A stretch of DNA of 6,508 bases from IMG/VR virus record IMGVR_UViG_2698536450_000019. One strand, written 5' to 3'. This document shows, in pieces, positions 1 through 3,000 of the stretch. The position numbers are program-made. This DNA is from a virus (lineage: Duplodnaviria > Heunggongvirae > Uroviricota > Caudoviricetes). Positions within the stretch are counted from its first letter, which is position 1; the number at the start of each line of letters is the position of its first letter.

Positions 1-3000
1 TCAATAAATCCCATCATTGCGATCAACCTCATCCTTAACCATTGATGCGAGCAGTTCTTCCAGTTTCTGCGCTGACAGCTTTACCTGGTGATCTTCAGCA
101 TCTTCCCGGGCTATTGTGGTTCGCGCAGTGGCTGATTTTGCTGACATCACCACAGGGGGCAGACGGACCATTGAACCATGGCCTCCGGAACAAATAAGGG
201 CAAAAATAACAACCACTATCGAAAGCTCACAAACTAACCGCAGCACGTTCCTGCATACGACGTGTCTGCGGCATAATCCCAATGATTACTCCCTGACAGG
301 GTTTGCAGGCCACTCAATATCAGGTGCAGTTGATGTATCAACACGATTCAACAATACCCGATATTTATTCCATGCCTCCAGCAACGATCTTTCTTCCTCC
401 GTTGCGATTTCCAGATCTACAGCATCCTGCAGTGGCGCAATATACTCACTGAATTCCTGGATGTAGAACTGTGTGGTGACGGTCTTCCAGCCATTCGGCT
501 CCTGCTGTATCGAAGCATACCAGGCTATTTCAATATCGCTATGCTGCGGCAGCATTTAACCCCTTGTAATTCATCGCCATAATTGATTTAATTCACAAAT
601 AAAACTATAACATGGTGAAATCAATGAAAAAAAACACAGATGATGGGGCTAAAATTTACACACCACTTACCCTAAAGCTTTATGACTGGTGGGTTTTGGG
701 AGTATCAAATCGGCTTGCATGGGGATGTCCTACAAAGGAACACCTTCTTCCACACTTTCTGGAACATGTAGGTAACAACCATCTGGATATTGGTGTTGGA
801 ACTGGGTTTTACCTTACTCACGTACCTGAGAGTAGTCTGATATCTTTAATGGATTTGAACGAAGCTAGCCTGAACGCGGCATCTACAAGGGCTGGGGAAT
901 CAAAAATTAAACATAAAATTAGCCATGATGTTTTTGAACCTTATCCCGCGGCGTTACATGGTCAATTTGATTCCATTTCCATGTTTTACCTTCTTCACTG
1001 CCTGCCTGGAAATATATCTACAAAAAGCTGTGTAATACGCAATGCGGCGCAGGCCTTAACTGACGATGGAACTCTATACGGAGCCACAATTCTTGGCGAT
1101 GGAGTTGTGCACAATAGCTTCGGTCAAAAACTGATGCGCATTTACAATCAGAAAGGCATCTTTTCAAACACAAAAGATTCCGAAGAAGGCTTAACACATA
1201 TACTCTCAGAGCATTTCGAGAATGTTAAAACCAAGGTTCAAGGTACTGTAGTAATGTTTTCCGCTTCAGGGAAAAAATAGCATCCAACCGCAGCACGTTC
1301 TTGCTTAAGACGTGCTGCGGCATAATCCCAATGATTACTCCCTGACAGGGTTCGTAGGCCACTCAATATCAGGTGCAGTTGATGTATCAACACGGTTCAG
1401 CAACACCCGATACTTTTTCCAGGCTTCCAGCAATGAGGTTTCTTCCTCCGTTGCAATTTCCAGATCTGCAGCATCCTGAAGCGGCGCAATATGCTCACTG
1501 GCTACCTGCATCAGGTTGTTTTTTGTTTCTTCCGCCTCCCGGATCCGGAACAGTTTTTCTGCTTCCGTATCCTTCACCCAGGCTGTGCCGTTCCACTTCT
1601 GAAACTCCCCTTCCGGCGATAACCAGGTAACATTTTCCGGTAACGGACCGAGTTCAGAAATAAATAACGCGTCGCCGGAAGCCACGTCATAAACCGTTTT
1701 ACCCCGATGGTCTTCAAAGAGATGCCACGATGACTCATCACTGTTGAAAACAGCCACGAAGCCTGCCGGAATATCTAACGGTGCAATATCGGTACTGTTT
1801 GCAGGCAGACCTGTATGAGGCGGAATATATGCGTCACCTTCACCAATAAATTCATTAGTTCCGGCCAGCAGATTATAAATTTTTATGGTCCGTGGTTGTT
1901 CACTCATTCTGAATGCCATTATGCAAGCCTCACAATATAGTTAAATGCGATGTTTTTGACGGTGTTTTCCGCGTTACCAGCAGCGTTAACGGTGATGGTG
2001 TGTCCATGTGAACCAATCGCAACGGAGTGCGCATGAGCACCAATTGGAACAGAGTGCGCATGGTTACCTGTAGTGCTTGTGGCACCAGACCAGGTTCTGG
2101 AAGCGTTAAAGTTTACAGGAACACCATAAGTAAATTGAGAGCCCGTAAATCCATGGGCTGGCGCAGAGCCACCCAGTGTAAATGCTCCACTTGCTGTATA
2201 GAAATTACCGCTATCACTTCTGAAGTAACCGAGAGTACCGGTAATTTCCATAGTGCCTCGGCTGTGGTTATGGTCACCAGTGGCATTTGAAGACTTAGTA
2301 CCATAATCAAACGACGACGTGGTTTTCGTCCCCAAATCCGTACTGGATGCACTGGCGCTGTGGGTGTGCGATTTAATGCCGTCCTGTTCCTGAGATAATA
2401 CGGCCCGACCACTGGCAGGTTTGCCCTTAATCGTCCAGCCACGCATATCAGGGATCACGCCTGACGGATAAGCAGCTGCAAGTTTCGGGTAAGCAGATTT
2501 GTCAAAAGTCTGCCCCTGCATCAGGGCATAACCAGACGGAACGGTATCTGATGGCCACGGGATTGGTGCGCCAGGCGGATAAAACTGCTCTGATGGCGTA
2601 TAGAGTGAATAAACTGTACCGTCCGTTAACCCTTCCGGCTTATTAGCAGAATATGCTGGTGACGTATGAATCGTCACGCTGGCATTACTGGTATAATCCC
2701 ATTGAATATTTACACCAGTCGCATAATTTCCGATTGCAACGTAAATATCGTAAGTATCACCAGATGTATTGACCCAGGCAAAATTTGTAAACCCTGTCGA
2801 TGTGCGCTGCCATAAAGCACCAGTAATCCCCTTCGGATTACCATTACCTGCACGCAAAACAAGTTCAGATATACCTGCCTGTTGAGGTGAACCGACGTTA
2901 AATCCAGCGCCACCAATCAACGTAATTGAAACAACAGAACTCGCCTGTGGCATGGTTACCGTTGCTAATTTGAACCAACCAGCACCACCGCTGAATGACA

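Follow-up and report, generated by a model that had tools for sequence, protein, structure and literature searches.

An 89-codon reading frame beside a ybcY-type methyltransferase is probably a PHROG 3893-tfa recombination scar

The 6,508-nt window analysed here (Caudoviricetes, IMG/VR record IMGVR_UViG_2698536450_000019) contains, besides a full-length tfa, an 89-aa minus-strand ORF (286-555) with a Tfa-like C-terminus, which raises the question of whether this apparent gene encodes a working protein or is a leftover. The tail fibre gene stf occupies 1919-4588, and directly downstream of it lies the full-length lambda-type tfa (1335-1919, minus strand, 194 aa, Pfam Caudo_TAP 151 bits). The constant partner of the small ORF is a plus-strand moron gene (612-1280) encoding a ybcY-type class I SAM-dependent methyltransferase (Pfam Methyltransf_12/23/25/11), which is AT-rich (GC 0.31-0.47 versus ~0.5 in the flanks) and is separated from the ORF by a divergent spacer of 56 bp (556-611). 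The minus-strand sequence around the ORF start reads 5'-CAAGGGGTTAAATG-3', in which (556-575) a Shine-Dalgarno sequence AAGGGG (565->560) is followed by four nucleotides (TTAA) and the ATG (555->553), and an in-frame TAA forms the three bases directly 5' of that ATG (558->556). An 89-aa ORF with its own ribosome-binding site and an upstream in-frame stop, as described in the initial annotation, is thus present, and it belongs to PHROG 2341, whose profile it matches over its full length (phrog_2341, E 4.1e-61, residues 1-88 versus profile positions 1-88 of 88).

BLASTP aligned residues 27-89 of the ORF with residues 132-194 of the neighbouring 194-aa Tfa (51/63 identical, 81%, E 2e-33), so the C-terminal likeness claimed earlier is real, the words "nearly identical" being slightly generous for this level of protein identity. 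Tfa profiles match from residues 29-33 onward, and codons 36-89 with the stop codon (286-450, minus strand) were traced by Pfam, repeat and BLASTP evidence to the final ~54 codons of a tfa gene. At the DNA level, 236-462 and 1286-1511 form a direct repeat of 89-90% identity that includes the terminator. The copy 3' of the ORF carries tfa 3' UTR and an intrinsic terminator (236-285, minus strand, repeated at 1286-1334) with a terminator-like hairpin at 255->239, and the other copy (1286-1511, minus strand) carries the terminator and the 3' end of the full-length tfa. Alignment of Tfa to the Mu Tfa chain 5yvq_B mapped the conserved C-terminal region to residues 126-191 of Tfa; since the Tfa-derived part begins at Tfa residue ~141, the start of the helical domain (from ~126) is missing and its first helix is truncated. 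Compared with lambda-type Tfa (PF02413 plus PF28596; Mu Tfa, 5YVQ), the ORF carries the conserved C-terminal motifs in its last ~54 residues but has nothing of the N-terminal fibre-binding domain and misses the beginning of the C-terminal helical domain, does not adjoin a fibre gene, and takes its N-terminus from another family.

The score of the ORF against Caudo_TAP (PF02413) lies far above threshold (88.3 bits, cut-off 22.1), and it bears the name "tail fiber assembly protein" in several databases and phage records, both of which would suit a genuine short tail-fibre assembly protein with a divergent N-terminus. However, the match is limited to profile positions 75-130 of 131 (residues 31-86), compared with positions 1-130 for the neighbouring full-length Tfa, and the fibre-binding N-domain (Caudo_TAP_N, PF28596) is recorded for full-length neighbours and not for the 89-aa product, whose N-terminus belongs to an unrelated family. 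Moreover, the ORF never lies directly 3' of a fibre gene and always adjoins ybcY, with tfa and the oppositely oriented methyltransferase lying between it and stf here and in all related loci. NCBI PGAP annotates 286-462 as a tail fiber assembly pseudogene without an N-terminus, and the locus is called a pseudogene in both ST131 and K-12 records. A stand-alone chaperone is therefore already contradicted by domain and synteny tests, and we consider it scarcely credible.

The N-terminal part led to a different family. BLASTP against the small protein P0123 returned 25/37 identical residues (68%, E 2e-17), and the phrog_3893 profile matched residues 3-37 at profile positions 2-36 of 79 (E 3.3e-7); this match is not full-length, genuine PHROG 3893 members matching positions 1-74 at E ~1e-26. 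An exhaustive HMMER search with residues 1-40 recovered only copies of the ORF and four small non-Tfa proteins (P0123/124/126/127), all full-length PHROG 3893 members, and found no Tfa. Every homologue covering the N-terminus begins at the same Met. The earlier statement that this part is unrelated to Tfa is thereby borne out and its source named, and the proposal that it might match the middle of another Tfa family received a negative answer; judged by these comparisons, it is neither degraded tfa nor part of another Tfa family. A longer Tfa with this sequence inside it was found by neither word-indexed nor exhaustive HMMER searches, and four apparent candidates (P0036, P0039, P0043 and P0121) were rejected as junction artefacts with unrelated N-termini. 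We also considered NGW (residues 21-23) as the Tfa W-NG-x-W motif brought forward by an internal deletion, an idea that was dropped because PHROG 3893 explains residues 1-37 collinearly from the start codon.

In a three-way DNA comparison of the ORF, PHROG 3893 genes (hereafter X) and tfa, identity to X extended through ORF nt ~102. The fusion junction lies at 451-462 on the minus strand (ORF nt ~94-105), at a CAGG(A) microhomology common to both parents, and residues 29-37 are covered by the profile matches of both Tfa and X. Profile, BLASTP and DNA comparison together assign codons 1-34 (454-555, minus strand) to the 5' end of X, which normally encodes ~80 aa. Since its N-terminus comes from X and its C-terminus from tfa, the ORF is a two-parent chimera encoding incomplete pieces of two domains, an X-derived part and a truncated Tfa C-terminal helical region. 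Compared with PHROG 3893 proteins, the chimera uses the same start codon and the same Shine-Dalgarno region but retains only the first ~35 of ~80 residues, the parent's predicted third helix and strands being absent. Inheritance of the ribosome-binding site and ATG from X explains both the ORF's own ribosome-binding site and the upstream stop, and the ORF resembles a gene since it took its translation signals from a real one.

The regulatory setting of X was not carried along. Native X genes have LexA boxes in front of them, diverge from dinI and precede a gene for an S24 (UmuD-like) peptidase, as seen in five loci (L148, L150, L151, L152 and L156), and their ~80-aa products, labelled "DNA polymerase V" in some NCBI records, belong to modules of dinI diverging from X and the UmuD-like gene. 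Only ~15-20 nt 5' of the chimera are still homologous to the native upstream sequence (aligned with L151, L152, L156 and phage Ayreon). In the window, the LexA box, the divergent dinI and the downstream S24 peptidase gene are all absent at the ORF; the chimera has lost X's LexA-controlled promoter region. The genomic slot of the parent, after the tail fibre genes, adjoining dinI and behind LexA boxes, is the one taken by LexA-controlled antirepressor modules (Gifsy dinI-gfoA/gftA-irsA, N15 AntC, 186 Tum), small examples of which have been described near the tail-fibre end of prophages (PMC3121763), with the difference that dinI is in the same operon in Gifsy and divergent beside X. This likeness is an analogy only of position and regulation, no sequence similarity to any of these systems having been established, and it concerns the parent and not the chimera. 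Direct identification of X with N15 AntC or a Gifsy antirepressor was rejected, no sequence link being found and N15 being absent among the tblastn hits. NCBIfam holds no model for either the chimera or X.

AlphaFold2 gave a confident model for X (pLDDT 89.2, pTM 0.79, fold spanning residues 5-73) and a poor one for the chimera (pLDDT 52.3, pTM 0.41, from a shallow alignment of 7 sequences). The X model gave only weak winged-helix hits in a Foldseek search of the PDB (E >= 0.2), and the chimera is predicted to keep two of the three helices of this winged-helix-like fold.

The ORF turned out to have a close counterpart in E. coli K-12, being the intact allele of the DLP12 pseudogene tfaX (ylcE). 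K-12 has the same locus type, tfaD'-ybcY-tfaX, with the same junction, located there between ybcY and appY; the 176-bp junction region is 98.9% identical to the window, and the first 61 codons and the 56-bp spacing are the same. K-12 tfaX differs by a nonsense codon (W62*, leaving 61 aa) and by another 3' flank, leading to appY, and K-12 ybcY is frameshifted, whereas the ORF and methyltransferase of the window are both intact. A search of 5426 complete E. coli genomes recovered the junction in 3437 of them, within both lambdoid and P2-like prophages, and a 19-mer scan of species-representative genomes placed the ORF only in Escherichia and Shigella; 19-mer matches in Firmicutes were dismissed as chance, lying in unrelated 200-aa genes. 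We therefore class the ORF as an already known remnant of tfaX type, which may nonetheless be expressed.

The window has the tfaX-type layout, with the methyltransferase divergent at 56 bp and tfa 3'-end sequence beyond it, and the same cassette occurs in K-12, ev243, PhiR68_2 and P2-like prophages. The spacer length is identical in all cassettes, and methyltransferase and spacer keep ~99% identity between lambdoid prophages, P2-like prophages and one tailspike context. The far side of the methyltransferase is anchored to tfa 3' UTR or coding sequence in 123 of 131 evaluable loci. This left arm of the cassette (1286-1511 in the window) almost always ends in WPTNPVRE, and the tail of the chimera varies (ANPVRE, TSPAE, AVPVME, EEPDTM and others). 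The left boundary of the shared sequence also varies by locus, in many cases lying within the final 165 nt of tfa. In phage Ayreon, a ybcY remnant lies beside a degraded, non-chimeric X, which supports an ancestral pairing of ybcY and X.

The anatomy, distribution and decay pattern of the chimera are observed, and from them we infer the following order of events. An ancestral prophage would have carried, downstream of stf-tfa, the ybcY moron back to back with X. Illegitimate joins at the level of microhomology may then have left only the Shine-Dalgarno sequence, ATG and first ~34 codons of X, fused in frame to the 3' part of a tfa gene, comprising its final ~54 codons and its terminator. The outcome would be a cassette consisting of a tfa 3' end, a terminator, ybcY on the opposite strand and the X'::tfa' fusion, in which the chimera is kept by hitch-hiking with ybcY. 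Both repeats of the tfa 3' end could serve as homology arms, so that homologous recombination carries the cassette into any phage whose tfa 3' end is conserved; such mobility would explain why it occurs in lambdoid and P2-like prophages alike and why the chimera has varied C-terminal tails. A methyltransferase moron between conserved tfa 3'-end repeats would make a tidy example of accessory-gene spread, in which such genes may cross unrelated phage types by homologous recombination within conserved tail-fibre chaperone sequence. We consider it probable that ORF 286-555 is a recombination scar that stays open by chance, a decaying leftover rather than a working protein, and its product is most likely functionless. 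The earlier suggestion of an inert remnant of a second tfa was essentially right as to a remnant, and needs correction in that the ORF is not simply a truncated tfa, its N-terminus coming from PHROG 3893. The importance of the ORF is accordingly small for biology and somewhat greater for annotation: although its ribosome-binding site is good, its Pfam hit strong and its copies number in the thousands, it is still best read as a fusion scar, and neither the label "tail fiber assembly protein" nor the PGAP pseudogene call shows that an unrelated SOS-linked gene supplied its first third.

Comparison of sampled copies revealed decay. Among ~129 copies scorable for both genes, 48 chimeras (~37%, ~63% being intact) and 25 methyltransferases (612-ATG definition) were disrupted, percentages to be taken as rough, since the copies lack phylogenetic independence. 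A sturdier measure is the number of distinct lesions: the 270-nt chimera carried 13 distinct disabling lesions, and the 657-nt methyltransferase showed two classes of poly-A frameshift and, in 8 copies, large deletions or rearrangements, with nonsense codons seen in none of the sampled copies. The plaque-forming phages checked carry truncated versions of the chimera, ev243 having a 101-aa form in which other sequence replaces the last 14 Tfa residues, and PhiR68_2 the 61-aa W62* form. In the X-derived part, 9 synonymous and 19 non-synonymous variants gave a pN/pS of 0.49 (p=0.07 versus neutral expectation), which is not distinguishable from the 0.32 of the methyltransferase; the functional Tfa gave 0.13, and the Tfa-derived part 0.35, a figure contaminated by gene conversion from functional tfa copies (Fisher p=0.25 and p=0.07). 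Substitution patterns at the chimera do not prove neutrality.

The intact native Shine-Dalgarno sequence and ATG, together with the open majority of copies, weigh against a scar and favour an expressed chimera that joins Tfa multimers through its retained Tfa C-terminal oligomerisation part and so weakens, tunes or poisons side-tail-fibre assembly, in its own phage or in a competitor with the same Tfa C-terminus. The conserved Tfa C-terminal domain is described, in the part of PMC9608196 that cites Mu Tfa work, as a multimerisation and assembly module, the N-domain binding the fibre. Because the ORF shares its strand with J-lom-stf-tfa, Q-antiterminated late transcription could, by extension from lambda biology, read into it. 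Its pN/pS is below 1, though without significance, and weak K-12 signals point the same way, namely a macroarray signal for tfaX (PMC3646849) and a three-fold rise in kanamycin MIC in a screen upon overexpression of the truncated tfaX product (PMC12924614). Nevertheless, the chimera lacks the beginning of the Tfa helical domain (~126 to ~141), has no confidently predicted fold, arose by an apparently accidental fusion with loss of the native promoter region, suffers many independent disruptions, is truncated in viable phages, and has variable or replaced C-terminal ends, and we regard participation in Tfa multimers as unlikely. A narrower version, in which the chimera is translated by late read-through or, in the lysogen, from a weak promoter in the spacer and acts through its partial Tfa helices as a decoy against tail-fibre chaperoning, seems very improbable to us; if true, one form of it would have the prophage poison the fibre assembly of superinfecting or co-resident phages sharing the Tfa C-terminus.

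Alternatively, the sequence could be kept at the DNA or RNA level, for example as upstream regulatory DNA for ybcY that binds H-NS and RNA polymerase. On the plus strand, the segment derived from X immediately precedes ybcY, a promoter-like site (TTAACC-16-CATAAT) is present at 556-583, and RNA polymerase and H-NS are reported to bind the K-12 ybcY/tfaX spacer in vitro in genomic SELEX (PMC3946193). However, consensus promoter hexamers were no more numerous in our scan than in shuffled sequence, and between the window and P2-like cassettes codons 1-31 diverge far more (7/93) than ybcY (7/669) or the spacer (1/56). In addition, one decayed remnant retains ybcY with only ~10 codons of the ORF. 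Retention for such a regulatory role is thus distinctly unlikely. The 556-611 spacer has consensus promoter-like hexamers and contains no LexA box. A candidate extended -10 element (TGtTATAGT, 612->604) was spotted by eye on the minus strand.

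The 89-aa ORF at 286-555 on the minus strand had been described in the initial annotation as a Tfa C-terminus with an unrelated N-terminus and its own ribosome-binding site, and each element of this description was confirmed. The start codon lies at 555->553, a TAA stands in frame immediately 5' of it, the Shine-Dalgarno sequence AAGGGG is located 4 nt upstream, and residues 27-89 align with residues 132-194 of the tail fibre assembly chaperone Tfa at 81% identity. At the DNA level the likeness is a direct repeat (236-462 vs 1286-1511, 89-90% identity) that includes the tfa terminator, and the Pfam profile Caudo_TAP matched residues 31-86 only, corresponding to the last 56 of its 131 positions.

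The N-terminal 40 or so residues did not prove to be a piece of another Tfa family, as had been considered. Residues 1-40 served as query in an exhaustive HMMER search of 1.84 billion representative proteins, which retrieved no Tfa and 18 proteins only, namely copies of the ORF and four small non-Tfa proteins (e.g. P0123), all four of which are full-length members of PHROG 3893, the gene family referred to here as X. The PHROG 3893 profile matched ORF residues 3-37 (E 3.3e-7) and the Tfa profiles matched from residues 29-33 on, while BLASTP against P0123 gave 25/37 identities (E 2e-17), collinear from residue 1. Database proteins spanning the N-terminus share one start methionine, apart from a few longer ones that are fusions to unrelated sequence. 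A three-way DNA comparison placed the join at ORF nt ~94-105 (window 462-451), where a CAGG(A) motif is common to both parents. The ~15-20 nt 5' of the ATG, Shine-Dalgarno sequence included, are similar to the native upstream sequence of X genes; the start region being homologous to that of X, the ORF's own ribosome-binding site, its ATG and the preceding stop were therefore originally the translation start of another gene. The initial annotation had proposed an inert tfa remnant; inertness is supported, but the ORF is a chimera of two genes and not a truncated tfa with a scrambled N-terminus.

Complete copies of X encode about 80 aa (HK225, Midgardsormr38 and several metagenomic and genomic contigs) and are situated beyond the tail fibre genes; dinI is usually in divergent orientation to X, and an S24 (UmuD-like) peptidase gene overlaps X on the downstream side. 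Clear LexA boxes, such as TACTGTATATACATACAGT in HK225, are present just 5' of X. This module was found in the compared loci L148 (HK225, 3450-4066), L150 (3501-4066), L152 (3681-4640), L156 (3740-4689) and L151, and is conserved in the post-tail-fibre accessory region of lambdoid and N15-like phages. AlphaFold2 modelled X with three helices and short strands over residues 5-73 (pLDDT 89, pTM 0.79), a predicted layout resembling a winged helix; Foldseek matches of the model in the PDB were weak and mostly to winged-helix domains. The label 'DNA polymerase V' that X bears in some records is probably a misnomer. X resembles the antirepressor modules of Gifsy prophages and N15 in position and LexA control; homology to N15 AntC or the Gifsy antirepressors was looked for and none was found. 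No LexA box lies upstream of the chimera, the rest of its 56-bp spacer being methyltransferase-side sequence.

The chimera retains helix 1, a strand and helix 2 from X, and residues ~141-194 from Tfa, whose conserved C-terminal region starts near residue 126 in an alignment to Mu Tfa. According to the statement on Mu Tfa work cited in the Pam3 gp25 paper (PMC9608196), fibre binding is a property of the N-terminal domain of Tfa, and the conserved C-terminal helical domain is responsible for multimerisation and assembly. With only ~141-194 present, the chimera lacks a fibre-binding domain, and its multimerisation domain is incomplete. AlphaFold2 modelled it with low confidence (pLDDT 52, pTM 0.41; shallow alignment of 7 sequences). 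That the ORF acts as a mini-protein competing with Tfa, the other reading of the initial annotation, is improbable. Expression as such is possible: a native start region is present and, since the ORF shares its strand with the late tail operon, antiterminated late transcripts could extend into it, by analogy with lambda biology. For tfaX, the K-12 counterpart, the ybcY/tfaX spacer is bound by RNA polymerase and H-NS in vitro (PMC3946193), ylcE/tfaX was among the differentially expressed genes of a macroarray study (PMC3646849), and in a screen the kanamycin MIC rose three-fold when the truncated K-12 product was overexpressed (PMC12924614). These hints do not extend to translation of the 89-aa form or to a role in fibre assembly.

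In E. coli K-12 the counterpart of the ORF is the DLP12 pseudogene tfaX (ylcE), arranged as tfaD'-ybcY'-tfaX'-appY, of which the window carries the intact allele. The element already has catalogue entries: K-12 tfaX, PGAP pseudogene and PHROG 2341, a family consisting of these chimeras. No description of its chimeric origin was found in the sources consulted, and that origin is an annotation detail rather than new biology. Of 5426 complete E. coli genomes, 3437 contain the 176-bp junction region, and an exact 19-mer probe of species-representative genomes found the ORF in Escherichia and Shigella only. Plaque-forming or inducible lambdoid phages carrying the chimera include ev243, PhiR29, PhiR68_2 and Kati. 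The ybcY-type methyltransferase lies 56 bp away in every case, and the two genes are likewise found together in P2-like prophages at ssrA/smpB and beside a tailspike gene, a notable case of one moron shared by different tail-module types. In L006-L010 (P2-like, smpB/ssrA) and L011, the cassette follows P2-type tail fibre H and Tfa genes, gpD in a decayed prophage, or a tailspike gene without a full tfa; in the P2-like cases, dinI and DUF4760 genes come after the chimera, echoing the native neighbourhood of X. In phage Ayreon a ybcY remnant adjoins a degraded, non-chimeric X, an indication that the two genes already lay side by side before the fusion.

The far side of the methyltransferase is anchored in tfa 3' sequence in 123 of 131 evaluable loci, with similarity to the window extending over the whole tfa (46 loci), its last 165 nt or less (43) or the terminator only (26). 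The upstream tfa almost always ends in WPTNPVRE, and the chimera tail is variable (ANPVRE, TSPAE, AVPVME, EEPDTM, SQP and others). From these patterns we infer that the two tfa 3'-end repeats may serve as homology arms, by which the methyltransferase moron would enter any phage whose tfa has a conserved 3' end; the chimera would then carry the tfa tail of the recipient.

Among 129 sampled copies in which both genes could be scored, the chimera was disrupted in 48 and the methyltransferase in 25, proportions that are rough because the copies are not independent. The latter count is likely an overestimate: in 12 copies the sole change affects the annotated ATG at 612 (M1T), which is probably not the real start. 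Translation probably begins at ATG 624 (MKKNT...), which has a GGTGA Shine-Dalgarno sequence (window 612-640); one gene call begins at the fifth codon (218 aa). The eight-A run directly after ATG 624 is the site of the frameshifts inactivating ybcY in K-12-type copies. Distinct lesions give a sturdier comparison than disrupted copies: the chimera (270 nt) showed 13, among them nonsense codons of five types, several frameshifts and a replacement of the 3' end. In the methyltransferase (657 nt) the frameshifts fell into two classes, both within a single poly-A run, large deletions or rearrangements affected 8 copies, and nonsense codons were absent from the sampled copies. Viable phages carry a 101-aa form without the last 14 Tfa residues or a 61-aa W62* form. 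The pN/pS ratios, which are no proof of neutrality, were 0.49 in the X-derived part and 0.35 in the Tfa-derived part, compared with 0.13 over the corresponding stretch of full-length Tfa and 0.32 in the methyltransferase. An extreme state of decay was seen in a DLP12-type element of E. coli Rb-3 (L158, 2854-4800; ompT, methyltransferase, tfa fragment, integrase fragment, tRNA-Arg), where ~10 codons of the chimeric ORF remain and the methyltransferase is intact.

The window corresponds to the right end of a lambdoid prophage, with J (3' part, 5405-6502), a frameshifted lom (Ail/Lom outer-membrane protein; 4740-5337, as ORFs 4740-5183 and 5167-5337), stf (1919-4588) and a 194-aa lambda-type tfa (1335-1919) on the minus strand, and the 222-aa class I SAM-dependent methyltransferase (612-1280) on the plus strand. 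Downstream of the chimera's terminator lies a C-terminal fragment of a DUF4376 protein (1-282, minus), which PGAP annotates as a pseudogene interrupted by an internal stop, a further decayed tail-associated gene at this end of the prophage. In an ST131 genome with 100% identity across window 1-1400, the end of the element adjoins a truncated ompW near trp; lom of the matching ST131 genome is also frameshifted according to PGAP, and stf encodes 889 aa in the window vs 1056 aa at the otherwise identical ST131 locus. In the repetitive, Ala/Ser/Thr/Lys-rich middle of stf (2952-4365), other frames and the opposite strand stay open over very long distances (379, 378 and 335 aa); these open frames are compositional artefacts and not genes. 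A 45-aa ORF (1225-1362, minus) overlapping the methyltransferase 3' end and the tfa terminator, a 'hypothetical protein' in RefSeq and a 'nucleocapsid protein' in a BW25113 record, is probably a spurious call.
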